From an uncultured Flavobacteriaceae bacterium (GTDB taxonomy: Bacteria; Bacteroidota; Bacteroidia; Flavobacteriales; Flavobacteriaceae): a stretch of 64,000 bases of DNA. Every line of letters begins with the position of its first letter. Position 1 is the first letter of the stretch. Both the position numbers and the translations under genes were made by a program. Below the pieces are notes generated by a model. It saw only the letters and a program-made list of their open reading frames with translations. It was not told where the DNA came from and ran no database searches. The stretch is taken from contig CALSUF010000002.1 of assembly GCA_943789465.1 (NCBI GenBank), positions 631,952 through 695,951 of the forward strand, read 5' to 3'. Below are positions 25,358-46,483 of this stretch, piece after piece.

Positions 25358-26116
25358 ATGTTCAAAAAAATCTTTTTCTATTTATTTCCATTTGCATTTG
25401 TAATGTCTTGCGCTTCAAAAAAAGATGTGTACTATTTTCAAGACATCGATAATTCAGTCCTTGAAAACAGTTTTAAATTTTTAAACATCCAACCTGGAGA
25501 TATTTTAGACATTCAAATTAAAGCGCTCAATCCGGAGAGTGTGTTGGTTTTTCAAAGACAAGCAACTCTAGTTAATAACCAACAACTACAAACTCAAAGC
25601 CGTACTATTGACGGCTACCTAGTCGGAGAAGAGGGCACAATTAACCTTCCCATCGTAGGCAATATCAACACTTCAAATGAAAATACACATACTCTAGCAC
25701 TTATAATTGAAGAGGCATTGAGTACCTATATCAATAACCCTACGGTAAACATCAGACTGCTAAACTTCAGAGTTTCTGTTTTAGGAGAAGTTAATAGTCC
25801 GGGCACATTCACTTTCCTAGAAGAACGTGTGAGTCTCCCCCAGGCGCTTGGAGTGGCAGGAGATTTAACTATTAAAGGAAATCGAACTCATTTGTTGCTC
25901 ATACGAAATGAAAATGGCAAAAACACAAACCAAGTCATAGACCTTACCAAAACCGATTTTTTAAAATCACCTTTTTACTTTCTAAAGCAAAACGACATCA
26001 TTTATGTACGCCCTAACAATGCCAAAGTTAAATCTTCAGGAATAATTGGTAACGCTGGCACTCTGGTCTCTATATTGAGTTTGGCTGTTAGTTTGTTTAT
26101 AGTTATAACACGTTAA
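25358..26116 (+). CDS. wza: Polysaccharide export outer-membrane protein (Wza / Poly_export family)
   Basis: Lipoprotein-type signal (FAFVMSCAS). Poly_export motif LQPGDILDIQI. Size and context match, with the partner Wzc downstream. Confidence 0.75.
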   Translation: MFKKIFFYLFPFAFVMSCASKKDVYYFQDIDNSVLENSFKFLNIQPGDILDIQIKALNPESVLVFQRQATLVNNQQLQTQSRTIDGYLVGEEGTINLPIVGNINTSNENTHTLALIIEEALSTYINNPTVNIRLLNFRVSVLGEVNSPGTFTFLEERVSLPQALGVAGDLTIKGNRTHLLLIRNENGKNTNQVIDLTKTDFLKSPFYFLKQNDIIYVRPNNAKVKSSGIIGNAGTLVSILSLAVSLFIVITR

Positions 26117-26122
26117 TTTAAT

Positions 26123-28462
26123 ATGAAAACTTCCGAAAATTATCCTAGTCAAGAGAACAGTTCTGTTGATATCTTCACAGAAATTCGTTATTATGTCTTT
26201 TTTTGGCCCTGGTTTCTACTTTCTATCTTTCTTTTTTCGTTAGGGGCTTATCTTTACCTCCGCTATACAAATACCATTTATCAAACATCGGCAACCCTTC
26301 AGGTTAAAGACGCTTCTTCAGACCCACCATCCTTTTTGACGGAAGGTGCAGGAAATATGTTTAGCTTTGATAAAGTCAAAATTGATAATTACATTGCTCA
26401 GATTGGCTCAAAACCAAATTTAGCAAGAGTTTCAGATCTCTTGGACCTACAAACTCAAGTTTACTCCGTTGGTCATATCAGGAAAAGACTGATTTTTGGG
26501 ACTGATATTCCCTTCAAAATTATTTTTAAAACCGAACAAACTTACGAGTCCCTTAGCTTGGTTTTAGAGGCTTCTAAAGGCTATCTTTATGTTGATGAGG
26601 ATCCCATCCAATTTGATCTTTCACTGCCTTTAGAAACCGACGATTTTAAGATAATTGTCAACACTAATAAACCAAAATACATAAATAATTACCAAATGAA
26701 CAGATCAAACAGGTATATGGCTGTTGAGCGTCTATCTAAAAATATTGGCATTAGTGGAAGTAGTAAAACAGGGGATAATATGAATTTGAATATTCAAGGA
26801 TTCAACGCCAAACGCAATGAAGCTATTTTGAATACTCTTATTGAGGTGGCACACAAGCAACAAAAATTAGACAAGCAAGAAATTTACGCACTCTCCATAG
26901 GTTTTATCAACAACAGATTAGGCTCCATTAAAAATGAAATTGACTCCTTAACACTTCAAACGACAGGCTTCAAGTCTAATAATTTTATCTTTTCACCAAA
27001 AGCTCAAACTGAATCAGCGCTTACGAGTTTAAAGAACTTAGACCAGCAGCAGTTTAACTTAACTACTCAAAAGGCCCTTGCAAAATCTCTAAAAAAAAAT
27101 CTTGAAAACCAAGCGGACTTTAGTCTTTTGCCATCCAATATTGGTTTGCAAAGTACGAATGTTAATGAACTGGTATTGTCTTACAATGCGCTGGTGTTGG
27201 AACGTAAAAACTTATTGACTGGTGCTACCAAAAAAAACCTATTGGTAGTTCAAATTAGCAATCAACTGAGTGACTTGAAAACTAATATTTTTAGTAGTGT
27301 AGACAATTATCTTTCAAATATCGAGACTTCCTTAACGGAATATAAAGACTTTAAAAATAGAACCAACTCAGAGGTTTCAAAAATTCCAGAACTTGAATCA
27401 ACCTTAATCGGTTTTCAAAGAAGTTACCAAATTGCAGAAAAGTTGTATTTATTTTTATTGGAACGTCGTGAGGAAGCATCAATTAGTTACGAATCGACAC
27501 TACCAAACACCCGTGTAATTAATCATGCCCATACAGATTATGTTCCTGTAAAACCAAAAAAACAAATCATAGCAATGGCTGCTGTTTTATTGGGCTTAGT
27601 ATTTCCTTTTGGTATTTTATACCTACTAAAACTAACCGATACTAAAATTCATAATCGAAACGAACTCGGAAAACTTATTCCTAACATAGATATTATGGGC
27701 GAAGTACCTTTTATAGAAGATATACATTCAACCGACGACTCAAGAAGTATTTTAACAGAAACCTTTCGCATGATTCGATCAAATATAAGTTTCAAGTTAA
27801 ATAGTGATCAATCTTGTAAGGTTATTTTATCTACCTCGAATATTAAAGGAGAGGGAAAGACTTTTACAGCTTTCAATATTGCTGCGAGCTATGTAGCGAC
27901 TGGGAAAAAGGTTTTGCTTTTGGGAGCTGATTTACGAAACCCAAAGCTTCACATCCCAATGGTAATTAAACGCCCAATAATTAACAAAGGATTGAGTAAC
28001 TTGATAGCGAATTCATCAATTGAAATTAGTTCTGATTATTTAAATTCTTTTAACATATTTAATAACAACTTAGATGTACTTTTTAGCGGTCCAATTCCAC
28101 CTAACCCGTCAGAGCTTTTAGGATCTGTTAGATTTGTAAGTTTATTAGACAAATTAAAGGACTCCTATGATTATATCGTTATTGATTCAGCACCACTTAT
28201 GCTTGTCAGTGATAGCTTACCACTCTTGAAACTTGCAGACTTAGTAATCTATACATTAAGAGCAGATTATACCGAAATAAAGATAGTTTCTTATGTTAAT
28301 AGTTTAGTTAAAGATAAAAAAGTAAACAATATTGGTGTTGTATTTAATAGTGTCAAATCTATTACAAAATCCTATTATAAATATGGGTACGGATACCGCT
28401 ATAGCTATCAGAACAAATCCAACTATGGTTACGGCTATGGTTACGATCAAGAAAAGTCATAA
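26123..28462 (+). CDS. wzc: Polysaccharide co-polymerase / tyrosine autokinase (Wzc, BY-kinase)
   Basis: Two TM segments flanking a Wzz-like periplasmic domain. Walker A STSNIKGEGKTFTAFNIAAS. Walker B VIDSAPLMLVSDS. Tyr-rich C-terminal tail YYKYGYGYRYSYQNKSNYGYGYGYD. Confidence 0.85.
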   Translation: MKTSENYPSQENSSVDIFTEIRYYVFFWPWFLLSIFLFSLGAYLYLRYTNTIYQTSATLQVKDASSDPPSFLTEGAGNMFSFDKVKIDNYIAQIGSKPNLARVSDLLDLQTQVYSVGHIRKRLIFGTDIPFKIIFKTEQTYESLSLVLEASKGYLYVDEDPIQFDLSLPLETDDFKIIVNTNKPKYINNYQMNRSNRYMAVERLSKNIGISGSSKTGDNMNLNIQGFNAKRNEAILNTLIEVAHKQQKLDKQEIYALSIGFINNRLGSIKNEIDSLTLQTTGFKSNNFIFSPKAQTESALTSLKNLDQQQFNLTTQKALAKSLKKNLENQADFSLLPSNIGLQSTNVNELVLSYNALVLERKNLLTGATKKNLLVVQISNQLSDLKTNIFSSVDNYLSNIETSLTEYKDFKNRTNSEVSKIPELESTLIGFQRSYQIAEKLYLFLLERREEASISYESTLPNTRVINHAHTDYVPVKPKKQIIAMAAVLLGLVFPFGILYLLKLTDTKIHNRNELGKLIPNIDIMGEVPFIEDIHSTDDSRSILTETFRMIRSNISFKLNSDQSCKVILSTSNIKGEGKTFTAFNIAASYVATGKKVLLLGADLRNPKLHIPMVIKRPIINKGLSNLIANSSIEISSDYLNSFNIFNNNLDVLFSGPIPPNPSELLGSVRFVSLLDKLKDSYDYIVIDSAPLMLVSDSLPLLKLADLVIYTLRADYTEIKIVSYVNSLVKDKKVNNIGVVFNSVKSITKSYYKYGYGYRYSYQNKSNYGYGYGYDQEKS

Positions 28463-28728
28463 ATTTCTGTAGGTTCTGCTTGTTGTTCATAAACTTGTTC
28501 CTAAGAAATCAGTTCTTTTTTATTCAAATACATGTCCTTTAGTTTGTTTATGAGGTTATGTTCCGGACTAGACTTTAAATGCGCAAAAAGGGGATGATAT
28601 CTTTACTGTATTCATGTTAAAGCGTACTGAAAAGAACTTAAGCATCTTCACTTAAATTAGCATGTAATTTTATGACCCTAATATTACTAAATAGTACTGT
28701 TTAATTTTCATTTAAAAAAACTTTTTTT

Positions 28729-29835
28729 TTGTATTCAATATCTTTTATTCTCAAATATATTACGTTTGTCACCATTGCTGGGGTTGTGGCAATCGGCTAC
28801 TATAGGCGACTCATACTAACATTTAGAATTTTTGGGAAACCAAAAAAAAGAGATTTTCACAAAAATCCTTTGCCAAACTCTGTAGGAATTGTTTTTGCAA
28901 TTTTATTTTTAATTGGATCTTTACCTCTAATCCCATACGTTAAAAACATACAAACTTTTTTAGCTCTATTTATTTGCATCTTTTTTCTGTCATTAATTGG
29001 CTTTTGGGATGATTTAAAAATCATGAACACAAGGAAAAAATTAGTTTATCAAATAATACTGATCATTATTACTGTAATCGCAAATGATCTAGTTTTAAAG
29101 AATCTTCATGGTTTCTTAGGGATTAACGAAGTGCCTAGCCTATTAGGGTTGCTGTTATCCGTGTTTATTGGTGTATTTATGGTAAATGCATTTAACTTGA
29201 TTGATGGCATAGATGGATTGGCAGGTTTTATTAGCATCATTGCCTTCACAAGTTTTGCTATCATCTTTTGGGTACTCGACTACAAATTCTATTTTGGGTT
29301 GTGTTTACTGCTCATCGGTATCATCTTAGCGTATCTGCCCTTTAACTTTAGTAGGAAAAGAAAAGTTTTTATGGGAGATTCCGGTTCGCTTTTTATTGGA
29401 TTCATCATTTTTATAATGACCATGATCGTGGTCACAAACATGGAGCCTATTGATACGAGCTTAATCCATAGGTCAATATTACCCATTGCGCCAATGACCA
29501 TTTTTCTCATTCCAATGGTAGATTCACTTAGCATATATACCTACAGACTATCTTTGGGAGTGAGTCCTTTTGCTCCAGACAGACTTCACATTCATCATTT
29601 AGCATTACGGATAACCAATTCACATTTAATGTCTTCAATAGGAATTAGTTCAATTAATTTATTCCTAATAGCTTTGTTTTCATACTTAGCATTCCAAATG
29701 CACCATACTTGCTTTATTGGACTATTTTTTGGGGTATTCTTTGGTTTAGTGTTTTTTACCATCTATCTCAGAATACGTCTTAAGCGGATTGCGCGTAAAA
29801 AATATCATGAGAGATATCCTTATATTCAAGGCTAA
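28729..29835 (+). CDS. Polyprenyl-phosphate sugar-1-phosphate transferase (MraY/WecA family, GT4 'GPT')
   Basis: MVNAFNLIDGIDGLAGFISII (NAxNxxDGxDGLA motif); 10-11 TM helices. The track start is a TTG adjacent to a T9 run, so the true start is uncertain. Confidence 0.75.
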   Translation: MYSISFILKYITFVTIAGVVAIGYYRRLILTFRIFGKPKKRDFHKNPLPNSVGIVFAILFLIGSLPLIPYVKNIQTFLALFICIFFLSLIGFWDDLKIMNTRKKLVYQIILIIITVIANDLVLKNLHGFLGINEVPSLLGLLLSVFIGVFMVNAFNLIDGIDGLAGFISIIAFTSFAIIFWVLDYKFYFGLCLLLIGIILAYLPFNFSRKRKVFMGDSGSLFIGFIIFIMTMIVVTNMEPIDTSLIHRSILPIAPMTIFLIPMVDSLSIYTYRLSLGVSPFAPDRLHIHHLALRITNSHLMSSIGISSINLFLIALFSYLAFQMHHTCFIGLFFGVFFGLVFFTIYLRIRLKRIARKKYHERYPYIQG

Positions 29836-29928: not shown

Positions 29929-30552
29929 TTATCCTTGGGAATAATTCAATATTGATATTATTACAAATAATAAAACATAAACAGCTATGACAATAAGGCC
30001 CCATTTTAGATTAGAATTTTTATTTAGATATGTGACCATAATATTGACAGTACTTATACTATTTTCTATACCAAGCTTATTTTTAGCCATATTAGATAAA
30101 TGTAACCAAGCTAAAGATAATTGTAGTTTGTTTTTATTTTCATCATCTTCATCCCAAAAACTCACCTTATTGAGCCTGTAGTTATTTTCTGCAAATTCCT
30201 TAATTTCTATCAAAAGTTTTGGGTTTGTAGGCAAAACAAAATTTGCAACTGCTTTGGCTTGTAATTTATAGACTTGTTGCCTTACATCTTCTTCATGGTC
30301 TTCATCCCATTCCTCAAAATTAGTAGTACCAAATATTTTACCTATTAACCCTTCCTTAGTGTTAGTGTTTTTATTATCAATGCGTGCTTGGATTTCTTTT
30401 CTTACTGTAATTTCAATCTCCCTAAGTTCATCCTCAAAATTGTTTATGGGGTGATTAATATCATTACTTTGAAATAAAGTAATTTCTCGTCCACACCATT
30501 CACAGATGACATCTTGTGCCTTTACTGGGTTTTTACAATGGTTACATTTCAT
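29929..30552 (-). CDS. Zinc-ribbon protein with C-terminal TM anchor (last gene of the SPFH/channel operon)
   Basis: N-terminal CxxC...CxxC (MKCNHCKNPVKAQDVICEWCG). C-terminal TM WGLIVIAVYVLLFVIISIL. Overlaps the upstream channel gene by 11 nt. Confidence 0.6.
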   Translation of the reverse strand: MKCNHCKNPVKAQDVICEWCGREITLFQSNDINHPINNFEDELREIEITVRKEIQARIDNKNTNTKEGLIGKIFGTTNFEEWDEDHEEDVRQQVYKLQAKAVANFVLPTNPKLLIEIKEFAENNYRLNKVSFWDEDDENKNKLQLSLAWLHLSNMAKNKLGIENSISTVNIMVTYLNKNSNLKWGLIVIAVYVLLFVIISILNYSQG

Positions 30553-31345
30553 TCTTAGATCGTTTTAATTCATCAATCTGAATTCTTAATTGATTTAATT
30601 CTTCGTCTTGTTTTGCGGATTTGTCTTTACTATATTCAGAATCATAGTTTTTAACAACTGCCCCAATGATAATATTTAACAGAAAAAATGCAGATAGAAT
30701 TAGCCATGAAACAAAATAGATATTTACAATCCAACTTGATACATCTGAACTTAACAAATCGTATCTAAGATCTGTCCAGTCTTCCCCTGTAGTAACTCTA
30801 AAAAGGGAAAATAGAGCCTCAGAGATATTACCAAAAGGATCAAATGTGTCATTAAATTTATTTGAGACATGAGTTTTACCTTTAAATAATATTACTCCTA
30901 CTAAGGCATAGAAATACATCAAAATAATAAGTAAAGAAATAATTCTAAGAAGAGCAGCAAAAGAATTTTTAACTACTCTTAATATAGCAAGAGTTTCTGG
31001 AAAAACTTTTATGAGTCTTATAATTCTAACCACTCTTACAATTCTAAATATTGTGAGTAAGTCAGAATTTAAAAATAAACTTTCTGGAATTAAAGAAACA
31101 ATTATTAACGTTAAATCAATAATATTCCAAATATTTTTAAAAAAAGAAATAACACTATTTCTAGCTAACCACCTAGCTGAAATTTCAACGATAAAGAGAA
31201 TGATACATGCATCTTGAGTCCATGAAATTAAATCTGATTGATAAGATTGCTCAATTCCAATGAGTATACAATTAACAAGAATAATAAATGCCACTGCAAT
31301 ATTAAAAGCTTGAGAAGCTACTGTTTTTTTAAAAAACAAATTCAT
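30542..31345 (-). CDS. Single-domain (6-TM) voltage-gated cation channel, BacNav/NaChBac-like, with a Ca-channel-type selectivity filter
   Basis: S4 voltage sensor with R/K at every third position (FRIVRVVRIIRLIKV). Pore-helix/filter LFRVTTGEDWTD aligns to NavAb TLESWSM with acidic residues at the positions mutated in the Ca-selective CavAb (TLDDWSD), and resembles eukaryotic Cav domain II (LTGEDWN). C-terminal coiled coil DEELNQLRIQIDELKRSK. 267 aa. Confidence 0.8.
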   Translation of the reverse strand: MNLFFKKTVASQAFNIAVAFIILVNCILIGIEQSYQSDLISWTQDACIILFIVEISARWLARNSVISFFKNIWNIIDLTLIIVSLIPESLFLNSDLLTIFRIVRVVRIIRLIKVFPETLAILRVVKNSFAALLRIISLLIILMYFYALVGVILFKGKTHVSNKFNDTFDPFGNISEALFSLFRVTTGEDWTDLRYDLLSSDVSSWIVNIYFVSWLILSAFFLLNIIIGAVVKNYDSEYSKDKSAKQDEELNQLRIQIDELKRSKNEM

Positions 31346-31346
31346 T

Positions 31347-32654
31347 TTATTCAGTTAGTTTTTTACCACAATTTGAGCAAAACTTTGTACCCGCAGTGTA
31401 TTCATTGCCACATTCACAGATATTTGGAAGAACATATTCACAGGCATGACATATTTTTGCATTTGCATCTAAATCAGTATCACATTTTGGACAAGGGTTA
31501 TAACCATCGCCACAATTTGGACAAAATTTATATTTAGGAGAAAAACCTGTAGCACATTTATCGCAGTTTACTGTTTTTTCAGTAATTTGTTTTGGTAAGG
31601 TTGTAGAATTGGCCTGTGCTGTACCACAGTTTTTACAAAAAGGGCTTGTAGATTGCAGAGCAGTGTTGCACTTACTACAAGGCTTTGAAGGATTGGCCAA
31701 ATTATCAGTATTCATCTGGTTTTGAACCATCCCTCCTACTTGATTTGCCAAAGGCATGGCCATTCCAAGTCCTACAACGGTACCTAAAATACCAGAGCCT
31801 CCAGAGCCGTCGCCACCTTCAGAGCCACCAATATTGGTAGCAGCTGCTTCAGTTGTATCAAAAGTTCGTTCAACTTTATATACATTTAACTGCTCGGCTC
31901 TACGTTTGAGTCGTAGTTTTTCCTCCATATCTTCAGACATAATACGGTGGTAATCCTCTACAATTTTTTTTACGCGCTCATCTTCGTCAACTACAGATAT
32001 TCCTTCAACACTAAAAAAACTAATTTCTAAACCATATTTAGACATAGCAAATTTTACAGCTGGCTGAATACTATTGCTAAGCTCTTTGACCATATATTCA
32101 AGTTCTAAAGGACCTAAGTCTAAATCTTTAGATAGTTTCCAAATTGCGTTTTTGGTTGATTCGGTAATAATTCCTCTAAATAATTTTTGTAATTCTAATT
32201 GATTGAATAGGCTAGATACCCCTACAATTTCAGTTAAAAATTTTCTAGAGTCTACTATCTTTACTGAATAACTTCCTCTACAGGTAATGGGAATTGGAAC
32301 TTTAAAATTTGGTTCAACGATATTAAAAGGCATCAAGCCCCACTTAGCATCCTGTGAAAGCGCCTTGTTTACGTAAAAAACCTCGGCAGTGAAAGGAGTG
32401 TCCCCTCCAAAAGCAAGTCCGATTACATCAGCTAGAAAAGGGATGTTATAGCTTGTAAGTGTGTGGGTTCCAGCTCCAAAAACATCTAATAACTTACCGC
32501 CTTTAAACATGAAGGCATCTTGGCTTTCATTGACCACCAATTGGGTGCCAATTCTTAGTTGATTTTCACGTTTTTGATTTCCATTTTTTGGAGACCATTT
32601 CCAAACAAGCTCATCATTTGGTCCTTCATATTTTAATACATCAATAATAGCCAT
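31347..32654 (-). CDS. SPFH/band-7 domain protein with C-terminal multi zinc-ribbon region (COG4260 / B. subtilis YdjI-like, 'virion core protein' family)
   Basis: N-terminus MAIIDVLKYEGPNDELVWKWSP... is typical of YdjI-like SPFH proteins. Gly-rich linker. At least 5 CxxC pairs in the last 110 aa (CSKCNT...CKNCG, CDKC...CPNCG, CPKC...CHAC, CECG...CSNCG). 1-nt gap to the channel gene (TAAAATG). Confidence 0.7.
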   Translation of the reverse strand: MAIIDVLKYEGPNDELVWKWSPKNGNQKRENQLRIGTQLVVNESQDAFMFKGGKLLDVFGAGTHTLTSYNIPFLADVIGLAFGGDTPFTAEVFYVNKALSQDAKWGLMPFNIVEPNFKVPIPITCRGSYSVKIVDSRKFLTEIVGVSSLFNQLELQKLFRGIITESTKNAIWKLSKDLDLGPLELEYMVKELSNSIQPAVKFAMSKYGLEISFFSVEGISVVDEDERVKKIVEDYHRIMSEDMEEKLRLKRRAEQLNVYKVERTFDTTEAAATNIGGSEGGDGSGGSGILGTVVGLGMAMPLANQVGGMVQNQMNTDNLANPSKPCSKCNTALQSTSPFCKNCGTAQANSTTLPKQITEKTVNCDKCATGFSPKYKFCPNCGDGYNPCPKCDTDLDANAKICHACEYVLPNICECGNEYTAGTKFCSNCGKKLTE

Positions 32655-32658
32655 ACTG

Positions 32659-34584
32659 TTACGATTTTGGTATTGGGATTTTCATACTCCCAGATTTTGT
32701 TATTATGTGTATCTCTTTCAAGTTATCCATACTAACTCTTGTACGAAATCTATAAACCAATTTTTGTGCATCAATTTGTTTAGATTTGGGTTGGATCGGA
32801 TTTATAGAATTTATGTCATTTATAGTAACAAAAGGTTCCAAATTAATGAGCTCTTTTGGTACAGAAAACGTGATATCATTATACACATACCCTTTGTCAA
32901 CAGAGATTTCTGATTTTTCTAACGCAGAAATCAATTCGTTTGGTAAATCTGTTTTTAATTTACTATACTCCTCAGATCGATCTTTTGCTGTTTGAAATTT
33001 AAATCCCTCCTCATCGATCCACGAAACAATATCGTCTGTGATGATGACACCTCTTAGTTTTACAATATCTTCAGGAACTATTTTTTTGTTTCCTAACCAT
33101 TCATAATCTATCTCAAGTGGTTCTTTATAGTCCTTTTCTGAGTACGGTGGAAGACTATTTAATGCATCTGGCACTTTAAAAACTTGATAATTATCTTTGT
33201 AACTGTCAGTAAAATGAATACATAAGAACAAACGAACGTTTTCTATAGTCCGGTTGGAATTGTTAGTCATTTTAACACGTAAAGAATTCTTAGGGTCAAT
33301 TATAGACCCTTCTGAAACCTCAATATCAACAAAAGGACGCTCCACAAACATCTCAGAAAAAACAGTTGGCAAATATTTATTGCAAAAATTTAAATCACCA
33401 GGCAAATAATCTTGAACCACTTGGTTGCCACGTCTAAAAAAGTGACGTTTAATTTCTTCGATTGCTTTTGTGTTGTTCCCAAGATTTCTATGCATGATAG
33501 CTTTTTGAAAGTTTGGACTGAAATTACCAAAACCTTCCATGGTACTCATGTAGGTTTTAACGATGAATTCAGACTCAACAGATCTAAAAATAGAACCTCT
33601 GATTTTAAAAATATTCATTAAATCCAGAAGTGCTTCACTTTGTTTTGGATACAGAATAGAGGCTTCATCAAATAATGTGAATGCGTTTTCTATTTCACCT
33701 TTTTGATATTCTAAAATACCCTTCAAAACAAAAGCAGGTGCTGTAGATGAAGGGAATTTTTCAAAATAAGATGCTAAAATGGTTTCTATTTCTTCAAGTT
33801 TAGTGACTTTTTGTTCGTCATTAGAAATGGTATTATTATTCAATGAAAGCAGGGCAAAACCTTTTAATAATATAGACTCACGATCATTGGGAGATAATTC
33901 TAAGGCAGTATCAGCAAACTCAATCACTTTTTGGTAATTAGAATTGTAAAGTGATATGTAGGCCTGATCTCTTTGAGCACAGAGCTTGTCCCATTGGGTC
34001 ATATATTTAAGAAATATAGGGCTTGAAAACTTAACATATTCCAAATAAGTTTCCTTGACTTTTTTTATCTTTTTTAAAACTTCAATTTCTCTTTCATAAC
34101 GGTCTCCAGCTATACTCATCGCATCGGCACCTGCTTTTGCAAGGTTTAAACTACCTCTAATTATATCTCCTTCATAAATTTGAACCCCTGAATTTACTGC
34201 AACAGCAGTAACACTTCCAAATTCTGAAAATGCAGTCCATACAGATTCACCAACTTCCTTTTCTGCCTCTGCATCATAAAGATTTTCTAACACTGGTAAT
34301 AATTTCTGATAACAACTAATAACATCAGGCGCTACACCAGTCAAATCTTGTTTGTAAAGATATTCTGTATATTCTTGAACGTCTTTTACATTTTTTATCG
34401 CTTCATCTAAAGTGAATATAACCTTAATTGTAGCTTCAAGGTTTAAAGAGTTCTTATTGGTTGTTTTAGAGTTTTCTAATTGTTCATCAAGCTGAGTAAA
34501 TTGTGAATTAGGGGATTTAGTCTCTGAACAGGCTGTAAACAATATGACTAAAAAAAGAATATTAAATTTTTTCATGATTTTCAT
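32659..34584 (-). CDS. Lipoprotein with TPR-like helical repeats (first gene of the SPFH/channel operon)
   Basis: Lipobox LVILFTAC. Helical repeat-rich sequence. 4-nt gap to the downstream SPFH gene. Confidence 0.65.
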   Translation of the reverse strand: MKIMKKFNILFLVILFTACSETKSPNSQFTQLDEQLENSKTTNKNSLNLEATIKVIFTLDEAIKNVKDVQEYTEYLYKQDLTGVAPDVISCYQKLLPVLENLYDAEAEKEVGESVWTAFSEFGSVTAVAVNSGVQIYEGDIIRGSLNLAKAGADAMSIAGDRYEREIEVLKKIKKVKETYLEYVKFSSPIFLKYMTQWDKLCAQRDQAYISLYNSNYQKVIEFADTALELSPNDRESILLKGFALLSLNNNTISNDEQKVTKLEEIETILASYFEKFPSSTAPAFVLKGILEYQKGEIENAFTLFDEASILYPKQSEALLDLMNIFKIRGSIFRSVESEFIVKTYMSTMEGFGNFSPNFQKAIMHRNLGNNTKAIEEIKRHFFRRGNQVVQDYLPGDLNFCNKYLPTVFSEMFVERPFVDIEVSEGSIIDPKNSLRVKMTNNSNRTIENVRLFLCIHFTDSYKDNYQVFKVPDALNSLPPYSEKDYKEPLEIDYEWLGNKKIVPEDIVKLRGVIITDDIVSWIDEEGFKFQTAKDRSEEYSKLKTDLPNELISALEKSEISVDKGYVYNDITFSVPKELINLEPFVTINDINSINPIQPKSKQIDAQKLVYRFRTRVSMDNLKEIHIITKSGSMKIPIPKS

Positions 34585-36843: not shown

Positions 36844-38775
36844 TTAGTTTTCAATAGTTACTAGTGGACTGACTGTTATATCTAGCGTATAGTGACCTCC
36901 AGAATAATTTACATTTGCAAAATGACCATCGGCATCAGCAGTCCAAATTGAACCATCAGAAATACCGGCAGGACCTGCTATTCTATAAATTGCTTTTTGA
37001 TCACCATTAGAATGCTCAGAAGGAGTTGTGAAATCATAGATTTTCACATTATTTTCTGTGTATAGGATGTATTGAGTATCAGCAATTCTATTATAATAAC
37101 CTCCACCAAATTGCGCCCATCCATATATAGTCATTTCTTTGAATTCAGAGATATTGTAAGGAGTATTAAAAAGAATCGTTCCAGTATCACCACCGTTGTA
37201 AGTATAATTATTTGTATCTGTTTTATTATCTCCAATCATGTGAATTATATCTCTTGTACCGCCAAAATTAGGGGATTGATGATTAACATTAGTTGTTGAT
37301 GCTGTTGCATAAGCTGGTCTTGCAGCGTCAAATTCTCCGCTATCACTATCCACAATAAAATGCATTGCTCTGATAGTTTGGTGTCCTCCAATTGATTTTT
37401 TAATTTCAATTTTTTTGATATTTGCAAATTCACTCGGAAGAATAGCATTAGTCATATCGGCGCCGCTTAAATCAGCCCCACTTAAATCAACACCACTTAA
37501 ATCGACACCACTCAAGTCTTGATTTATTAAGTCTGCGTTAGATAGATCAACTCTTGGTCCAACAATATAACCATTAACAATTGAGTATCCTGGCGGTAAT
37601 GTAGGATTTCCTGAAACATTTCCAGAACTGACACCAGTAAAAGTTGCACCAGAAAAATCAATTCCTGTTAAATCAATTCCTGATAAATCAGCAGAATATA
37701 GGTCAGAATTTGTAAAATTACTACTCCCATTTTGTATCATTAATCTTATTAAAGATCTAGCAGGAGCAGCTGAACTTGAAATACTAGACTCTCCTTGAAT
37801 TCCTTGAGGCCCAGTTTCTCCAGAAGGACCTGTTAAGTCAGAGGTTGTGAAAGTTGTTCCATCATCAAAAGACAATGTAAATGTTCCATTATTATTATCT
37901 GTTGCGGAAACAATTCCATTCCCAGCAGAACCAGCATTTCCAGGTGGTCCTACTAGACCTTGTGCACCATCTGCACCATCTGCACCTGGAGCACCTGCAG
38001 CACCTATACTTCCTGTTGGACCTATTGGACCTTGAGCACCATCAACTCCGTCAACACCTGCTGGGCCTGGAGCACCTTGGTTTCCTTGAGGACCTGCTGG
38101 ACCGATTGGACCTATTGGACCTTGAGCGCCATCTGCACCATCTGCACCTGCTGGACCTTGATTTCCTTGAGCTCCTGCAGCACCTATACTTCCCGTTGGA
38201 CCTATTGGACCCTGAGTACCAGTCTCGCCTTGTATTCCTTGGTCGCCTTGTACACCTTGAGCACCATCAACTCCGTCTTGACCATCAACACCTGCTGGGC
38301 CTGGAGCACCTTGATTTCCTTGAGGACCTGCTGGACCGATTGGACCTATTGGACCCGGAACTGTTGAGTCCGCGCCAACTGGACCTTGAACACCTTGATT
38401 TCCTGCTGGGCCTTGAACACCTGCTGGACCCTGAGCACCATCTTCGCCATCTGCACCTGCTAATCCTTGAGGACCTGCTGGACCTTGTGGACCTGTTAGA
38501 CCTTGAGGACCAACTACGCCATCAATTTTTGCCCAAGCTGTTCCATTATAAAAATAAAATCCTGATATTTCATCTGTTTGATAAATCATTAAACCTGTAG
38601 CAGGTGCTGAAATATCATCACGCTGCGTCTCTGTGAGACGTGGAATTAAAATACCTCCTGTGGTGGATTCAATTTCTAATGCCGAAGAAGCATTTGGGGT
38701 ATTGGTATTAATACCAACCTGAGCGTAGCTGAGTACTGTAAATAGCATGACTATCAAAAAGTTGATTTTTTTCAT
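36844..38775 (-). CDS. Secreted collagen-like (G-X-Y) protein with C-terminal pentapeptide-repeat and globular domains; paralog family N-domain
   Basis: Signal peptide MKKINFLIVMLFTVLSYAQ. Conserved 80-aa N-domain VGINTNTPNASSALEIESTTGGILIPRLTETQRD...GLMIYQTDEISGFYFYNGTAWAKIDG. About 70 uninterrupted GXY triplets. Pentapeptide repeats ADLSGIDLTGIDFSGATFTG and DLSGVDLSGVDLSGADLSGADM. Confidence 0.8.
   Translation of the reverse strand: MKKINFLIVMLFTVLSYAQVGINTNTPNASSALEIESTTGGILIPRLTETQRDDISAPATGLMIYQTDEISGFYFYNGTAWAKIDGVVGPQGLTGPQGPAGPQGLAGADGEDGAQGPAGVQGPAGNQGVQGPVGADSTVPGPIGPIGPAGPQGNQGAPGPAGVDGQDGVDGAQGVQGDQGIQGETGTQGPIGPTGSIGAAGAQGNQGPAGADGADGAQGPIGPIGPAGPQGNQGAPGPAGVDGVDGAQGPIGPTGSIGAAGAPGADGADGAQGLVGPPGNAGSAGNGIVSATDNNNGTFTLSFDDGTTFTTSDLTGPSGETGPQGIQGESSISSSAAPARSLIRLMIQNGSSNFTNSDLYSADLSGIDLTGIDFSGATFTGVSSGNVSGNPTLPPGYSIVNGYIVGPRVDLSNADLINQDLSGVDLSGVDLSGADLSGADMTNAILPSEFANIKKIEIKKSIGGHQTIRAMHFIVDSDSGEFDAARPAYATASTTNVNHQSPNFGGTRDIIHMIGDNKTDTNNYTYNGGDTGTILFNTPYNISEFKEMTIYGWAQFGGGYYNRIADTQYILYTENNVKIYDFTTPSEHSNGDQKAIYRIAGPAGISDGSIWTADADGHFANVNYSGGHYTLDITVSPLVTIEN
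38172..38410. repeat. About 240-bp collagen-coding tract, near-identical to 39497..39736 and 48950..49190 (an inter-paralog homogenised segment)
   Basis: DNA identity is visible by eye (...cctatacttcccgttggacctattggaccctgagtaccagtctcgccttgtattccttggtcgccttgtacaccttgagcaccatcaactccgtcttgaccatcaacacctgctgggcctggagcaccttgatttccttgaggacctgctggaccgattggacc...). Antisense shadow ORFs 37881..38600, 39428..39754 and 48902..49600 share identical peptides. Confidence 0.75.
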
Positions 38776-38813: not shown

Positions 38814-40355
38814 CTAATTAATTAATATAAAATTTGAAACACCATGATAAGAAAAAATACCTTTATGGTCAGTGTTATTATCAAAATAAGGTATTGTTGA
38901 AGTTTCTTCAACGTTATAATTTGATGGAATACTAGAAGATAAAATATCCTCTGTTTTATGAGTTTGAAGATTTAAAAATAATGAAGAATCAAAACTATAG
39001 TTGCCAATATTTGAAGTTCTTGTGGTGAAACTGTTGCTGTATCCAATATATAATATTCTGTAAGTTTTACCTGGACTTAGAATCAAATCAGGGTATTCAT
39101 TTGTGCTTATGTAAGAATAAATTTTTGCTCCAAACCCATCGTTAATATTATCATTATCTTCAAAAATATATGGTGCAGCAGATGCGTAATTACCTCCATC
39201 AGATTTTGGAATTTTACCTATACTAATTCTTTTTGCTACTTGAAAGGAAATTATGTAACTAACATTATATGTATTCGATGTAGAACTGGACGTAGGAGTA
39301 CTTAAAAAATTAACGTATGTACTACTAACTGTTTCACTTGAACTAGTATAGACGTATAAGTTTTGTTTAGTAATATCAAAAACTAAATCCCCATCACTTA
39401 AACCCTCTATGCTACTAATATCAGAGTATGCTACTACATAAGCATTATTTGCTTGGAATGATTCACCAGAAGGACCAACTGGACCTTGTGCACCAGGAGC
39501 TCCTGCAGCACCTATACTTCCCGTTGGACCTATTGGACCCTGAGTACCAGTCTCGCCTTGTATTCCTTGGTCGCCTTGTACACCTTGAGCACCATCAACT
39601 CCGTCTTGACCATCAACACCTGCTGGGCCTGGAGCACCTTGATTTCCTTGAGGACCTGCTGGACCGATTGGACCTATTGGACCCGGAACTGTTGAGTCCG
39701 CGCCAACTGGACCTTGAACACCTTGATTTCCTGCTGGGCCGATTGGACCTTTAGCGCCATCTGCACCATCTGCGCCATCAGCACCGGCTGGACCTGCTGG
39801 ACCTTGTAAACCTTGTGAACCTGTTGGACCTACTGAGCCTACTGGACCTTGAGCACCATCTTCGCCATCTGCACCTGCTAATCCTTGAGGACCTGCTGGA
39901 CCTTGAGCACCATCAACTCCGTCAACACCTGCTGAGCCTACTGGACCTTGAGCACCAGTATCTCCTTGTATTCCTTGGTCACCTTGTGGGCCTTGAACAC
40001 CTGCTGGACCCTGAGCACCATCTTCGCCATCTGCACCTGCTAATCCTTGAGGACCTGCTGGACCTGCTGGACCTTGTGGACCTGCTGGACCGGCTACACC
40101 ATCAATTTTTGTCCATCCTGTTCCATTGTAAAAATAAAAACCTGATACTTCATCTGTTTGATAAATCATCAATCCCGAAGCTGGTGATACAATCGCATCT
40201 CGCTGTATTTCTGTTAATCTAGGAATGAGAATTCCTCCAGTGGTTGATTCAATGTCTAATGCCGATGAAGCATTTGGGGTATTGGTATTGATACCAACCT
40301 GAGCATAGCTCAATGCTGTAAACAGCATGAGAGTGATTAAAGTAATTTTTCTCAT
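38814..40355 (-). CDS. Secreted collagen-like protein (paralog) with a distinct Ser/Thr/Asn-rich C-terminal domain
   Basis: The same signal peptide and N-domain (MRKITLITLMLFTALSYAQVGINTNTPNASSALDIESTTGGILIPRLTEIQRD...). About 70 GXY triplets. Confidence 0.8.
   Translation of the reverse strand: MRKITLITLMLFTALSYAQVGINTNTPNASSALDIESTTGGILIPRLTEIQRDAIVSPASGLMIYQTDEVSGFYFYNGTGWTKIDGVAGPAGPQGPAGPAGPQGLAGADGEDGAQGPAGVQGPQGDQGIQGDTGAQGPVGSAGVDGVDGAQGPAGPQGLAGADGEDGAQGPVGSVGPTGSQGLQGPAGPAGADGADGADGAKGPIGPAGNQGVQGPVGADSTVPGPIGPIGPAGPQGNQGAPGPAGVDGQDGVDGAQGVQGDQGIQGETGTQGPIGPTGSIGAAGAPGAQGPVGPSGESFQANNAYVVAYSDISSIEGLSDGDLVFDITKQNLYVYTSSSETVSSTYVNFLSTPTSSSTSNTYNVSYIISFQVAKRISIGKIPKSDGGNYASAAPYIFEDNDNINDGFGAKIYSYISTNEYPDLILSPGKTYRILYIGYSNSFTTRTSNIGNYSFDSSLFLNLQTHKTEDILSSSIPSNYNVEETSTIPYFDNNTDHKGIFSYHGVSNFILIN
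39497..39736. repeat. Copy of the shared about 240-bp collagen-coding tract
   Basis: See 38172..38410. Confidence 0.7.
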
Positions 40356-40356: not shown

Positions 40357-41055
40357 TTATTTTTTTATGATTTTAAACGTTGAGATTTGGTTTTTTGTGT
40401 TTTGTAAATTCAGTAAATAAACTCCTGTAGGTAGGTCTGTAACATCCAGTTCTAAGGCATTTGACTCTAATATTTTTTGACCTACTGTATTGAATAATGT
40501 AGAGTGTTGTGGAGAATTAGAAACTATAATTATTTTATCGGTTGTTGGATTTGGGTAAACCCTTACTATATCATTTAGTGTTTCTGTTTTTATGGTGAGT
40601 GTTGCTGATGAAGCACTTGCTGTAACTTGTTTAAAGCCAACAAGCTCTGTAAAATCATAGCTCAATATGTTATTCACATCATCAATAGTTGGTGCAAGGT
40701 TATTCCAAACATCATTGGCATCCAATACTTCTAGAACTAATTCTGCTTCGTCAATACCATTGAGCTCAGAGTTTAAATAACGAAAAGAAAGTATTCCTGA
40801 ATAATCAGTTAGTTCATTTGATAATTCATAAACTCTTTCAATACTAGAGTTATTTCCAACAACTATTGGGGTAGTCGATCGAGCAATAGAATTAGGCCCT
40901 GTTATGGTATGAGATACACTAGGGGATAATTCTAATCCGTCTACTGAAACAGAACTATTGGAGTTAACGCTAACAAAACTTCCTGATTCAACGCTAAGAG
41001 TTTGGCTAAAACAAAAGGAGGTCGCTAGCAATATAGCGAAATGTAATTTGTGCAT
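40357..41055 (-). CDS. Small T9SS-secreted protein (Por C-terminal sorting domain)
   Basis: Signal peptide [19 protein letters not shown]-terminus RVYPNPTTDKIIIVS...TGVYLLNLQNTKNQISTFKIIKK. Its stop lies 1 nt before the collagen gene start. Confidence 0.7.
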   Translation of the reverse strand: MHKLHFAILLATSFCFSQTLSVESGSFVSVNSNSSVSVDGLELSPSVSHTITGPNSIARSTTPIVVGNNSSIERVYELSNELTDYSGILSFRYLNSELNGIDEAELVLEVLDANDVWNNLAPTIDDVNNILSYDFTELVGFKQVTASASSATLTIKTETLNDIVRVYPNPTTDKIIIVSNSPQHSTLFNTVGQKILESNALELDVTDLPTGVYLLNLQNTKNQISTFKIIKK

Positions 41056-41434: not shown

Positions 41435-44400
41435 TTAATTCTTTATAATTCTTTGTGTAGTGAGTTTAGCACCATCAGAAAGTTGTAGGATGTAGACTCC
41501 TTTTTCTAGTTGGCTAATATCTATACTATTTGTAATAGACTTATTCATTAGTTGCTTTCCAAGTATATCATATACAACTACTTTTAATTGAGTGTAATTA
41601 CCGTCTATGTATACTATATCTGAAGTAGGATTTGGATAAACAGAAAGCCCTAATTCAAATGCATGATCTCCCACACTTAATGCACTACAAGCTGCTTCAT
41701 CTTCAACAAAAGTAGCTGCAGGATCAATAGTTGTCCAATTTGTAGAACTATAGTCAGCATTGTCCACAAAAATACAGCTCAAATTAGGATTGTTTGTAGC
41801 AATAAAATAAGTAATGCTTGCATTATTTTCGTTTCTAATATCTAATGTTTCTAATTGATTATTATCAACACTCAAAATTTCCAAATTAGTGTTACTACTA
41901 AGATCTAAAGTTGTTAAATTATTTGAATTACAAGTCAAAATCTCTAAGGCAGGATTACTACTTACAATTAGTTCTGTTAATTGGTTATCATAACTAGCCA
42001 AAATCTCTAAGGCAGTATTACTACTCACAATTAGCTCTGTTAATTCATTAGAATTACAAATCAACGTAATCAAGTTTGCATTACTACTGACATCTAAACT
42101 TCTTAATCCATTGTTATTACATTCCAAATACTCCAAAGCAGTATTTTGACTCACATCTAAACTTGTTAATTGATTATTTTCGCATCTCAAATAGTCCAAA
42201 GCCGTAAATCCTTCTATTCCTGTCAAATCTGAAATATATAAACCTCCTAAATTTATACTTGTTATGCCATTAATATTTGCAGTTAATACTTGACCATCAA
42301 TTTCTCCCGAGTCTAGATTATAATCTATTAGGGCTTGTTCAAAATTGGCATCTGGAATGGAGGTGATTGAAGGACAAGTACCCCAAACTGGTGTATTACT
42401 CTCAGCCAATGGTGAATCAACACTAAAATTACTTGGCTCTGAAGTAATATCTGTAACACACCAATTTGATATATCTTGATTGAAAGCAGATGCTTGATAA
42501 AACATAGCTTCCATATTAGTAACACTACTCACATCCCATTCACTTATATCTTGATTGAAAGAAAATGCTCCAGCAAACATTTCTAACATTTCAGTCACAT
42601 TACTCACACCCCAAGCATTCAATGGTTGATTGAAAGATGATGCCCCAAAAAACATAAAAGACATATTAATAACGCTGCTCACATCCCATTCACTTATATC
42701 TTGATTGAAAGAAAATGCTCCAGCAAACATACTAACCATATTAGTCACACTACTTGTATCCCATTCACTTATATCTTGATTGAAAGATGATGCTTGATAA
42801 AACATACCACTCATATCAGTCACACTACTTGTATTCCAATCATTTAGTGGTTGATTGAAAACAGTTGCTCTAGCAAACATACCACTCATATCAGTCACAC
42901 TACTTGTATTCCAATCATTTAGTGGTTGATTGAAAGATGATGCATTATAAAACATATAACTCATATTAGTCACACTACTCACATCCCAAGAACTGATATC
43001 TTGATTGAAAGCAGTTGCTGATTCAAACAAATAATTCATATTAGTCACATTACCTGTATCCCAAGCACTTATATCTCCATTAAAAGTGTTTTTATCTTCA
43101 AATGCATCACTCATATCCGTTACTTGGCTCACGTCCCAATCTGGCATTAAACCGTATTCACTATCTGAACATAGACCATCTTCTGGATTTGTACTTAAAC
43201 AAGTGTTTATAGCAGTATAAAAATTATCATCTGTAATTGGGGTTAGATTGCTTGGACAAGTACCCCAAACTGGTGTATTACTCTCAGCCAATGGTGAATC
43301 AATACTAAAATTACTTGGCTCTGAAGTAATATTTGAAACACACCAATTGGATATATCTTGATTGAAAGCTGATGCTTCTAAAAACATAGAATCCATATTA
43401 GTAACACTACTCACATCCCAAGAACTTATATCTTGATTGAAAGCAGATGCAGAATAAAACATTTCATACATATTAATCACATTAGCCACATCCCAAGAAC
43501 CTATATCTTGATTGAATTCTGTTGCAGAATCAAACATACTATCCATTCTACTAACACTACTTACATCCCAAGAACTTATGTCTTGATTGAAAGATGATGC
43601 TTCTTCAAACATATAACTCATATCAGTAACACTACTTGTATTCCAATCATTTAGTGGTTGATTGAAATCGGATGCAAGAGCAAACATACCAACCATATTA
43701 GTCACACTACTTGTAACCCAATCATTCAATGGTTGATTGAAAGATGATGCATAAAAAAACATATAACTCATTTCAGTAACACTACTTGTATTCCAAGAAC
43801 TTATGTCTTGATTGAATTCTGTTGCAGAATAAAACATATAACTCATATCAGTAACACTACTTGTATTCCAATCATTCAATGGTTGATTGAAAGATGATGC
43901 ATAAAAAAACATATAACTCATTTCAGTAACACTACTTGTATTCCAAGAACTTATGTCTTGATTGAATTCTGTTGCAGAATAAAACATATAACTCATATCA
44001 GTAACACTACTCACATCCCAAGCACCAATAGGTTGATTGAAAGCCGATGCCCCTGCAAACATATAACTCATATTAGTCACACTACTCACATTCCAAGAAC
44101 TTATATCTTGATTTAATTCTGTTGCAGAATCAAACATACCATACATAGTTGTAACACTAATTGTATTCCAAGAACTTATATCTTGATTGAAAGATGATGC
44201 TTGATAAAACATATCTAACATATCAATCACATTACTCACATTCCAATTAGAAATATCTTCATTAAAATTTCGTTTTCCATCAAATAAAGAACTCATATCT
44301 GTAATTAAAGAAACATCCCAAGTATTCATTGCTCCGTAAGTTCCTGAGCCTTGTTCGGATGGTACTGGACTATCTGCAGTAATCGTCCCATCAATCCAAC

Positions 44401-46483
44401 CGTTCACGGCTGATTGTAATTCAGCTTTTGTTCTTGGTTGAAACATATTAAGAGCAACATCCGAAAGTCTCCAAACATCATTACTATCTCGTGTTATGGT
44501 AGGAGTTGGATTGTATCCTAAATCTAGAGCAGCCGCTGCACCACTAAACATATTGGTGACATTAACCGTTTCACTTTTTAATTGCCAGGTCCAAAGGTTT
44601 TGATTAAATAATACTGCATTATAAAACATACTGTCCATTGAATCTACATTACTAACATCCCAAGAACCAATATCTTGATTGAAAGATGATGCTTCTTCAA
44701 ACATAAAACCCATATTAGTCACACTACTTGTATCCCATTCACTTATGTCTTGATTGAAAGATGATGCTTTATAAAACATAGTTAACATATTAGTAACACT
44801 ACTTGTATCCCAAGCATTTAGTGGTTGATTGAAAGATGATGCTTCATAAAACATAAAACTCATAGTAGTCACACTACTTGTACCCCAAGAACTTATGTCT
44901 TGATTGAAAGATGATGCATCATAAAACATACCCTCCATATCAGTCACATTACTCACATCCCAAGCATTCAATGGTTGATTGAAAGATGATGCCCCAAAAA
45001 ACATACCACGCATAGTAGTCACACTACTTGTATTCCAATAATTCAATGGTTGATTGAAAGATGATGCATCCGAAAACATTCGATACATATTAGCAACATT
45101 ACTCACATTCCAATTAGAAATATCTTCATTAAAATTTTGTTTACCATCAAATAAATAACTCATATCTGTAATTAAAGAAACATCCCAAGTATTCATTGCT
45201 CCGTAAGTTCCTGAGCCTTGTTCGGATGGTACTGAACTATCTGCAGTAATTGTGCCATCAATCCAACCGTTCACGGCTGATTGTAATTCAGCTTTTGTTC
45301 TTGGTTGAAACATATTAAGAGCAACATCCGAAAGTCTCCAAATTTCATTACTATATTGTGTTATGGAAGGAGTTGTATTGTATCCTAAAGCTCGAGCAGC
45401 CGTTGCTAAATAAAACATATCCGTAACACTCACCTCACCACTTTTTAATTGCCAGGTCCAAAGGTTTTGATTAAATAATACTGCATTACTAAACATATAA
45501 CCCATATCAGTCACACTACTCACATTCCAAGCACTAATATCTTGATTGAAAGATGATGCATGTGCAAACATAGCATACATATCAGTCACACTACTCACAT
45601 TCCAAGTATTCAATGGTTGATTGAAAGATGATGCATCTGCAAACATACCATACATAGTTGTAACACTACTCACATTCCAATTAGAAATATCTTCATTAAA
45701 ATTTTGTTTTTCCTCAAATAAAGAACTCATATCTGTAATTAAAGAAACATCCCAAGTATTCATTGCTCCATAAGTTCCTGAGCCTTGTTGGGATGGTACT
45801 GGACTATCTGCAGTAATCGTCCCATCAATCCAACCGTTCACGGCTGATTGTAATTCAGCTTTTGTTGTTGGTTGAAACATATTAAGAGCAACATCCGAAA
45901 GTCTCCAAATTCCATTACTATCTTGTGTTATGGAAGGAGTTGTATTGTATCCTAACGCTAGAGCAGCCGTTGCACCATTAAACATATTGGTGACCCTAAC
46001 CGTTTCACTTTTTAATTGCCAGTTCCAAAGGTTTTTATTAAATAATACTGCATTCTCAAACAAATTTATCATGTTAGTCACATTACTCACATCCCAAGAA
46101 CTTATGTCTTGATTGAATTCTGTTGCAGAATCAAACATACCAACCATATTAGTCACACTACTTGTATTCCAATCATTCAATGGTTGATTGAAAGATGATG
46201 CATAAACAAACATATAACTCATATCAGTAACACTACTTGTATTCCATTCACTTATATCTGCATTGAAAGCGGTTTTTTCTAAAAATGCATTGGACATATC
46301 TGTTACTTGGCTTACATCCCAATCTGGCATTGCACCATATTCACTATCTGAACACATTCCATCCTCTGGATTGCTAGTTAAACAAGTATTTATTGCAGTT
46401 TGAAAATTAGCATCTGTAATGGGGGTGTTTTGACTAAAGCAAAAAGAAGTGGCTAGTAATAAAACAAATTGTAACTTTAACAT
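41435..46483 (-). CDS. Giant T9SS-secreted surface protein (1682 aa): about 35 DUF285 (BspA/Mycoplasma-lipoprotein-type) repeats, C-terminal leucine-rich repeats and a Por sorting domain
   Basis: Signal peptide [18 protein letters not shown]. Reiterated approximately 26-aa DUF285 unit ([40 protein letters not shown]). LRR block [36 protein letters not shown].... C-terminus [34 protein letters not shown]...[21 protein letters not shown]. Internal large duplications (three copies of [57 protein letters not shown]). Confidence 0.85.

Follow-up and report, generated by a model that had tools for sequence, protein, structure and literature searches.

Introduction

Two bacterial voltage-gated channels are the natural points of comparison for the protein described here. 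NavPp of Plesiocystis pacifica, with the selectivity filter TLEDWTD, is permeable to Na+ and blocked by external Ca2+, with a permeability ratio of Ca2+ over Na+ (PCa/PNa) of 0.31, and CavMr of Meiothermus ruber, with the filter TLEGWVD, reaches a PCa/PNa of 218 owing to the glycine at filter position 4 (Gly4) (PMC7041947). We analyzed a 64,000-nucleotide stretch of DNA from an uncultured Flavobacteriaceae bacterium (GenBank assembly GCA_943789465.1, contig CALSUF010000002.1, positions 631,952 to 695,951; hereafter the window), and found a gene for a 267-residue channel protein whose filter, TGEDWTD, differs from that of NavPp at one position. This filter is nearly invariant in a large clade of bacterial homologues. 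By analogy with NavPp and with a mutant of NavAb, we tentatively propose that the channel carries Na+ or other monovalent cations and is blocked or tuned by divalent ones.

Filter mutants of the described channels frame this proposal. In NavPp, the D4G mutation raises PCa/PNa from 0.31 to 41, and the T6S (TLEDWSD) and T6A (TLEDWAD) mutants are still blocked by Ca2+; in CavMr, G4D lowers the ratio to 7.7 (PMC7041947). Grafting TLEDWTD into CavMr gives a PCa/PNa of 13.8, with ratios of 0.95 for K+ (PK/PNa) and 0.57 for Cs+ (PCs/PNa), and discrimination among monovalent cations is lost (PMC7041947). By contrast, NavAb with TLEDWSD and NaChBac with TLEDWAD are selective for Ca2+ (PMC7041947, citing Tang 2014 and Yue 2002). 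Of the four AnclNav homologues that Shimomura et al. cloned, no current could be detected from two, the Halomonas and Teredinibacter channels (PMC7041947).

Other positions have been approached separately. When the leucine at position 2 of NavAb is replaced, Ca2+ permeability is low and divalent block appears: at 40 mM Ca2+, L176G loses about half of its current and L176A is blocked nearly completely, and the crystal structure of L176G has an additional water-filled cavity beneath the filter (Irie et al. 2023, PMC10349818). An aspartate in the position after the key glutamate, the “beacon” Asp, is linked in a published classification to one of two behaviors, Ca2+ selectivity or strong Ca2+ block (PMC10120453). 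How Glu/Asp rings give rise to Na+ selectivity, to Ca2+ selectivity or to Ca2+ block is a matter of continuing debate.

Results and Discussion

A predicted single-domain voltage-gated cation channel

The channel gene is the one open reading frame (ORF) in its interval (Table 1), as judged from the ORF list and translation; it lies on the minus strand, and the plus-strand frame is full of stops. Its product matches the Pfam family Ion_trans (PF00520) with an E-value of 5e-43 and 147.4 bits, against a cutoff of 25, and the match spans residues 12–240, corresponding to profile positions 2–239 of 241. The best single-domain match in the Protein Data Bank (PDB) was NaChBac (95–97 bits), followed by NavMs and NavRh; PDB chains of eukaryotic Cav and Nav channels outranked NaChBac through four summed repeats of ∼60–75 bits each. 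A monomer model, built with AlphaFold2 from an input of 37 clade sequences, has a mean predicted local distance difference test (pLDDT) score of 86 and consists of six transmembrane (TM) helices together with the pore helices P1 and P2. In the model, S1 covers residues 12–34, S2 38–60, S3 72–84, S4 94–114, and the S4-S5 linker with S5 116–154; P1 (174–186) and P2 (190–198) follow, and S6 and the C-terminal tail form one helix (204–266). Foldseek comparison of this model with the PDB returned CatSper, NavAb, NavMs, CavAb, NaChBac and NavRh.

The first-pass annotation, made from the sequence alone, had described a six-TM protein of this length with a canonical S4, and both descriptions held. Positive charges occupy every third position of S4 (R101, R104, R107, R110 and K113), and R101, R104 and R110 do not vary across the clade. 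Equally invariant are the charge-transfer and countercharge residues F51, E54 and R58 of S2 and D77 of S3. The BacNav superfamily in its broad sense is marked by a single 6TM repeat of ∼230–300 residues, with S4 charges at every third position, S2/S3 countercharges and a T-x-E/D-x-W filter between P1 and P2. The 267-residue protein shows all of these, and on its sequence it is a single-domain, BacNav-type voltage-gated cation channel. Public records annotate the gene merely as “ion transporter” or “voltage-gated sodium channel,” and NCBIfam holds no specific name for it, returning just a far sub-threshold match to a K+ channel model.

The same annotation had seen a coiled coil at the C terminus. 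The helical part of that claim stands, as the modeled helix is continuous to residue 266. The heptad pattern is short: among the 33 residues after S6, a heptad scan finds about two heptads with hydrophobic residues at positions a and d (L250, L253, I257 and L260), and the tail is shorter than that of NavAb or NaChBac. A short coiled coil is thus a plausible but weakly based assignment.

The filter sits in an AnclNav-type pore

Reference channel sequences were taken from the supplement of Shimomura et al. 2020 (PMC7041947) and aligned with MAFFT. The heptapeptide TGEDWTD (residues 186–192) falls column for column on TLESWSM of NavAb and NavMs, TLESWAS of NaChBac, TLEDWTD of NavPp and TLEGWVD of CavMr, and HMMER places it in register with domain II of Cav1.2 (fqilTGEDWnsvmyd). 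The acidic residues E188, D189 and D192 therefore occupy exactly filter positions 3, 4 and 7. These are the positions at which aspartates convert NavAb into CavAb, as the first-pass annotation had proposed, and no misalignment that would move the acids out of the filter was seen. Its further remark that the motif mirrors domain II of eukaryotic Cav channels is also borne out, TGEDW being identical and in register there.

Conservation extends beyond the filter itself. D169-P170, E176, R183, L193-R194-Y195 and N224 are invariant or nearly so throughout the clade, and two of these residues, D169 and E176, add further invariant acidic side chains to the outer mouth. R183 lies in P1, three residues ahead of the filter, and an arginine is found there in 117 of 117 clade members. 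The same arginine is present in all eight reference channels with Asp4, which are AnclNav channels, whereas canonical BacNavs and domain II of Cav1.2 have glutamine. The extra post-filter residue of canonical BacNavs is absent from the channel, and a second clade-invariant arginine, R194, stands two residues past the filter. With a P1 arginine and no extra post-filter residue, the pore context of the channel is, to judge by its sequence, of the AnclNav/eukaryote type. We infer that R183 and R194 could together compensate for two of each subunit's three negative filter charges. Arg-Asp pairing of this kind may explain why Asp4 does not confer Ca2+ selectivity in an AnclNav-type scaffold.

The filter defines a large and divergent clade

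Among the 120 best database homologues, whose identity falls to ∼37%, 116 carry TGEDWTD exactly; the exceptions are TAEDWTD in three and TGDAWTD in one. A first pattern match had counted 113, and in the alignment 116 of 117 full-length homologues have the motif. A scan with one genome per species found relatives in 279 genomes. At the best 80 of the 279-genome loci the filters are TGEDWTD (70 loci), TGDDWTQ (7), TGDDWTD (2) and TAEDWTD (1), a distribution biased by the inclusion of EDWTDLRY in one of the two motif search patterns. Position 2 is thus Gly, rarely Ala, all through the clade, whose members share a mean identity of ∼46%. The first-pass annotation had presented such a channel as a rarity; as far as the motif is concerned, the counts of 116/120 and 70/80 say otherwise.

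The hosts of these best 80 loci are diverse. Bacteroidota are represented by, among others, Prevotella, Alistipes, Muribaculaceae, Paludibacteraceae and Rikenellaceae from animal guts, and the remaining loci come from Planctomycetota, Verrucomicrobiota, Gamma- and Alphaproteobacteria, Desulfobacterota, SAR324, Campylobacterota, Endomicrobia and Ignavibacteriae. A wider profile search was dominated by eukaryotic four-domain channels through their summed domain scores. In the literature searched, which omits most subscription-journal papers, we found no paper for “TGEDWTD” or “TGEDW” with “BacNav,” and no native prokaryotic Cav besides CavMr; TGEDWTD is also absent from every sequence supplement of the CavMr paper (PMC7041947). 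The filter variant and the clade appear to be new, and the architecture and gating machinery are already known.

The channel is 24–30% identical to each characterized or reference channel, with ∼24% to NavPp. In order to place it, a neighbor-joining tree of 49 sequences was computed with 200 bootstraps and rerun with the seven filter columns masked. The clade (the TG clade below) was monophyletic in 200 of 200 bootstraps, with the filter masked as well as with it included, and the channel fell outside both canonical groups, the Bacillus group and the NavAb-like group. The TG clade joined AnclNav in 62% of bootstraps (43% with the filter masked), and within AnclNav it joined the Halomonas/Teredinibacter pair with the filter TFEDWTD in 52% (36% masked). 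The clade profile scored AnclNav references at 127–176 bits (15 of 16 at 143 or more), the Bacillus group at 141–157 bits and the NavAb-like group at 121–132 bits. AnclNav and canonical BacNavs scored each other at 231–237 bits, and either scored 147–168 bits against the TG clade. Because profile scores and tree agree, we regard the TG clade as probably the most divergent prokaryotic group and AnclNav as its nearest neighbor, the latter with weak bootstrap support. The channel departs from the signatures of canonical BacNavs and of AnclNav alike. In place of the canonical BacNav signature, a TLESW(A/S)(S/M) filter with a P1 glutamine and one extra residue after it, it has a P1 arginine, Gly2, Asp4, Asp7 and a junction shorter by one residue, and the AnclNav filter type T-(L/F)-E-(D/G)-W-(T/V)-(D/E) is broken by Gly at position 2.

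The shared TGEDW raised the question of a special kinship with domains II and IV of eukaryotic Cav channels, and we rejected it. The clade profile gives eukaryotic domains means of only 95–113 bits, less than it gives bacterial references (121–176 bits) and less than eukaryotic domains receive from AnclNav (115–146) or canonical BacNav (116–121) profiles. Likewise, total PDB bits against Cav3.1 were 232 for the channel, 238 for NavPp and 271 for NaChBac. Because eukaryotic repeats score lower with the clade profile, the identity of TGEDW with Cav domain II is local, and it could reflect ancestral retention or convergence.

Eukaryotic four-domain channels (P0121-P0266) alternate between TL/TM-E-G-W in domains I and III and TG-E-x-W in domains II and IV. 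Both filter types have homotetrameric prokaryotic counterparts, in CavMr-like TLEGW and in the TGEDW of this clade. Overall profile scores give no sign of a special ancestry behind the two types.

Ion selectivity

Each of the nearest described channels departs from this pore in a different way. NavPp is likewise a single-domain 6TM protein and shares the P1 arginine (LFRV) and the short spacing from filter to P2. It differs in having Leu at position 2 and Met where the channel has the invariant R194, and in a long Cys-containing turret insertion after P2 that the channel lacks; moreover, the channel belongs to a separate clade with 100% support. CavMr belongs to the same superfamily, with the same general architecture and an Asp at position 7, whereas the channel has Asp4 (D189) and Thr6 and so lacks the Gly4 that defines CavMr. 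The CavAb, NavAb and NaChBac mutants (TLDDWSD, TLEDWSD and TLEDWAD) have the acidic positions 3, 4 and 7 in common with the channel, and CavAb was among its fold matches. These mutants, however, were engineered in a canonical scaffold with P1 Gln, Leu2 and the extra post-filter residue (SMGIVRP), in place of which the channel has P1 Arg, Gly2 and a shorter P2 junction; when such filters were put into NavPp, no Ca2+ permeation resulted (PMC7041947).

The likeness to eukaryotic Cav1 and Cav2 channels is confined in a similar manner. Domain II (FQILTGEDWN) shares TGEDW in register, and the pore segment of the channel scores 31.6 bits against Cav1.2 domain II and 34 bits against the NavMs pore. 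In Cav channels Asp4 occurs in domain II alone, with Gly4 in domains I and III, whereas a homotetramer of the present protein would have four Asp4; in addition, Cav1.2 domain II has P1 Gln and is part of a four-repeat polypeptide rather than a single 267-residue repeat. Finally, NavAb L176G and L176A have a small residue at position 2, as do the TG and rare TA filters of the clade, but retain Ser4 and Met7.

We propose that four subunits assemble into a homotetrameric, depolarization-activated cation channel of the BacNav/AnclNav/CavMr superfamily. The four copies of E188, D189 and D192 would then form a strong binding site for divalent cations, set within an AnclNav-type pore scaffold between the invariant R183 and R194. 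Such a channel would carry a Na+ or monovalent current that external Ca2+ and Mg2+ block or tune, with at most modest Ca2+ permeability. We consider a monovalent conductance blocked or tuned by divalents to be the single most likely phenotype, because of the analogy with NavPp (TLEDWTD) and NavAb L176G, and hold it with somewhat less than even confidence. Several points weigh against it. The analogy draws on other channels, not on clade members, and at ∼24% identity to NavPp and 25–30% to any characterized channel the transfer of a phenotype is risky; the placement of the clade beside AnclNav is itself weakly bootstrapped. Scaffold effects are large, as TLEDWTD gives a PCa/PNa of 0.31 in NavPp and 13.8 in the CavMr backbone, a ∼45-fold difference (PMC7041947), and TLEDWSD and TLEDWAD are Ca2+-selective in NavAb and NaChBac, respectively (PMC7041947). 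TGEDW is native to domain II of the Ca2+-selective eukaryotic Cav1 and Cav2 channels, and the effect of Gly2 is known just from a NavAb background without Asp4 or Asp7 (PMC10349818).

Several of these points would fit a native, highly Ca2+-selective channel, in which rings of E188, D189 and D192 act as in CavAb and the TGEDWTD clade comprises bacterial Cavs. The acids are at exactly the right positions, the NavAb and NaChBac mutants set a precedent (PMC7041947, citing Tang 2014 and Yue 2002), TGEDW is the motif of Cav1.2 domain II and frequent in domain II of eukaryotic four-domain channels, the beacon Asp classification permits Ca2+ selectivity (PMC10120453), and D169 and E176 add negative charge at the outer mouth. 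In the nearest scaffold, though, Ca2+ selectivity is lost with an aspartate at position 4 and gained with a glycine there (7.7 versus 218 for CavMr G4D and wild type; 41 versus 0.31 for NavPp D4G and wild type), NavPp mutants with CavAb-like filters are still Ca2+-blocked, NavAb acquires divalent block when position 2 holds a small residue, and R183 and R194 may offset two of each subunit's three negative charges. The CavAb-style aspartate rule holds in canonical BacNavs and fails in the AnclNav scaffold; because it was derived in NavAb and NaChBac and the pore of the channel is AnclNav-type, its transfer to this channel is not supported. Reading Ca2+ selectivity from CavAb-like acids, as the first-pass annotation did, thus runs against the pore context and against the NavPp and CavMr data. 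By analogy with these channels high Ca2+ selectivity is unlikely, although it keeps a real minority share of our expectation, and the sequence evidence does not favor it as a headline claim.

A poorly selective cation channel, one that lets Na+, K+, Cs+ and Ca2+ through and moderately favors Ca2+ like the CavMr chimera with the NavPp filter or EukCatA, seems to us rather improbable but a real alternative. The permeability ratios of that chimera (PCa/PNa 13.8, PK/PNa 0.95, PCs/PNa 0.57) speak for it, and a cavity under Gly2 such as that of NavAb L176G could loosen monovalent discrimination. Strict invariance of the seven filter residues, R183 and L193-R194-Y195 across phyla, on the other hand, points to a finely tuned site. 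We give very little credence to the view that the protein forms no working channel alone, whether as the product of a decayed gene or as a partner-dependent protein. The silent Halomonas and Teredinibacter homologues, which make up its weakly supported sister group, and tight linkage to genes for an SPFH protein and a Zn-ribbon protein, which could imply needed partners, are compatible with it. Against this stand the intact ORF, the conservation of gating-charge, countercharge, filter and S6 Asn residues at ∼46% mean clade identity, and the occurrence of relatives in 279 species genomes, which argues for purifying selection on a functional channel.

If the channel proves NavPp-like, in line with our preferred reading of a monovalent conductance under divalent control, it extends the family in a useful but incremental way. 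A bolder view, which we think doubtful, is that the TGEDWTD clade forms a fourth major prokaryotic voltage-gated group of Ca2+-permeable or Ca2+-selective homotetramers, partnered with SPFH proteins in Bacteroidota; its “domain II/IV-type” filter (TG-E-x-W) would then complement the “domain I/III-type” filter (TL-E-G-W) of CavMr. The clade filter unites Gly2, the beacon Asp4 and Asp7, which had formerly been studied separately or through mutagenesis. A clade member would amount to a homotetramer of the Cav domain-II filter, and it bears on how far the “add aspartates” rule depends on the scaffold. At stake is the physiological class of channels in many marine and gut bacteria, and the size of the clade and the invariance of its filter make the channel a good candidate for electrophysiology.

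Gene neighborhood and a possible link to SPFH proteins

The channel gene is the third of four packed minus-strand genes (Table 1), with spacings of 4 nt and 1 nt and an 11-nt overlap. The SPFH gene ends 1 nt from the channel start codon, and the gene for the 207-residue protein overlaps the channel stop by 11 nt, at the junction ATGAAATGTAA. We found no minus-strand terminator-like site inside the cluster; a sigma-70 promoter scan was at background (25 sites versus 24.2 expected), with a model that does not apply to Bacteroidota promoters. From this layout the four genes are likely co-transcribed, and the channel is probably translationally coupled with the SPFH and Zn-ribbon membrane proteins in this Flavobacteriaceae lineage. 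The SPFH scaffold and the Zn-ribbon membrane protein may organize or regulate the channel.

Table 1. Coordinates in the window of the channel gene, its parts and the neighboring genes of the cluster
Feature	Position	Strand	Basis
Voltage-gated cation channel coding sequence, 267 aa, single-domain	30542..31345	-	ORF list, translation, PF00520; stop codon included
Voltage-sensor domain S1-S4, aa 12-114	31004..31312	-	AlphaFold2 secondary structure, conserved residues
S4, aa 94-114, R101/R104/R107/R110/K113	31004-31066	-	AlphaFold2, segment listing
Pore domain, S4-S5 linker to S6, aa 116-234; turret with invariant D169-P170	30644..31000	-	AlphaFold2, Foldseek, conservation
Selectivity filter T186-G-E-D-W-T-D192, flanked by invariant R183 (P1) and L193-R194-Y195 (P2)	30770..30790	-	In-register alignments, clade invariance
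R183 and R194 flanking the filter	30770-30799 and 30764-30769	-	Clade alignment
C-terminal helix with short heptad pattern, putative short coiled coil, aa 245-267	30545..30613	-	AlphaFold2 helix, heptad scan
641-aa lipoprotein-like protein with weak tetratricopeptide repeat (TPR) matches, first gene of the cluster	32659..34584	-	ORF, sub-threshold TPR matches, kept in 8 loci
435-aa SPFH protein (Band_7_1) with C-terminal double zinc ribbons, upstream neighbor	31347..32654	-	PF13421 E=3e-38, PF12773 E=2e-15
207-aa protein with N-terminal zinc ribbon and C-terminal TM helix, downstream neighbor	29929..30552	-	ORF, weak Zn_ribbon_3 match

The same four-gene order was found at eight loci of this Flavobacteriaceae lineage (L001-L003, L007, L009-L012), where the channels are 73–100% identical. 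The 207-residue Zn-ribbon protein occurs at nine loci at just 41–43% identity, the channel there being ∼73–75% identical. Conservation of the cluster throughout the clade was considered and rejected, as it is missing around homologues of 47–49% identity (P0026, P0035) and from every non-Bacteroidota locus. In at least five Bacteroidales genomes, including those of Prevotella and Sangeribacter, a different SPFH module lies no more than 4 kb from a channel of ∼33–37% identity (L032, L036, L050, L063, L068). It comprises a Zn-ribbon/TM protein, a Band_7_1+GYF_2 protein, a small GYF_2 protein and a small membrane protein, and three more loci have partial traces of it. The recurrence of SPFH modules beside the channel suggests that channel and SPFH scaffolds are functionally linked, which is a lead and not a result. 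Such a partnership would recall the ydjGHI module of B. subtilis, and the recurrent SPFH neighborhood could serve as a bacterial model of how stomatin-type proteins regulate ion channels. A role of the four-gene cluster in anti-phage defense was also considered, and PADLOC returned no match for any of the four proteins.

The channel gene is 100% identical to one in the metagenome-assembled genome (MAG) Flavobacteriaceae bacterium cluster4_bin.32 (L007). Near-identical or closely related copies of the locus occur in MAGs labeled Flavobacteriaceae, Saprospiraceae and even Aeromicrobium (Actinomycetota) (L007, L008, L011). Contamination or mislabeling probably affects some of these bins, because the type IX secretion system (T9SS) genes of the window fit Bacteroidota.

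Other features of the window

A block for the export of capsule or exopolysaccharide (25358-29835, plus strand) ends convergently against the channel cluster. It encodes a Wza-like Poly_export protein, a Wzc-like protein with GNVR and P-loop kinase domains, and a family-4 glycosyltransferase.

Two giant T9SS-sorted surface proteins are encoded at 41435-46483 and 2990-7528 (minus strand). One, of 1682 residues, has 14 DUF285 repeats and leucine-rich repeats, and the other, of 1512 residues, has nine bacterial Ig-like domains and HYR. The neighboring genes at 36844-38775 and 38814-40355 (minus strand) both code for proteins that contain collagen triple-helix repeats, an uncommon combination in bacteria; the product of 36844-38775 also contains pentapeptide repeats. 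At 40357-41055 they are followed by a gene whose small product carries a sorting tail for the T9SS.

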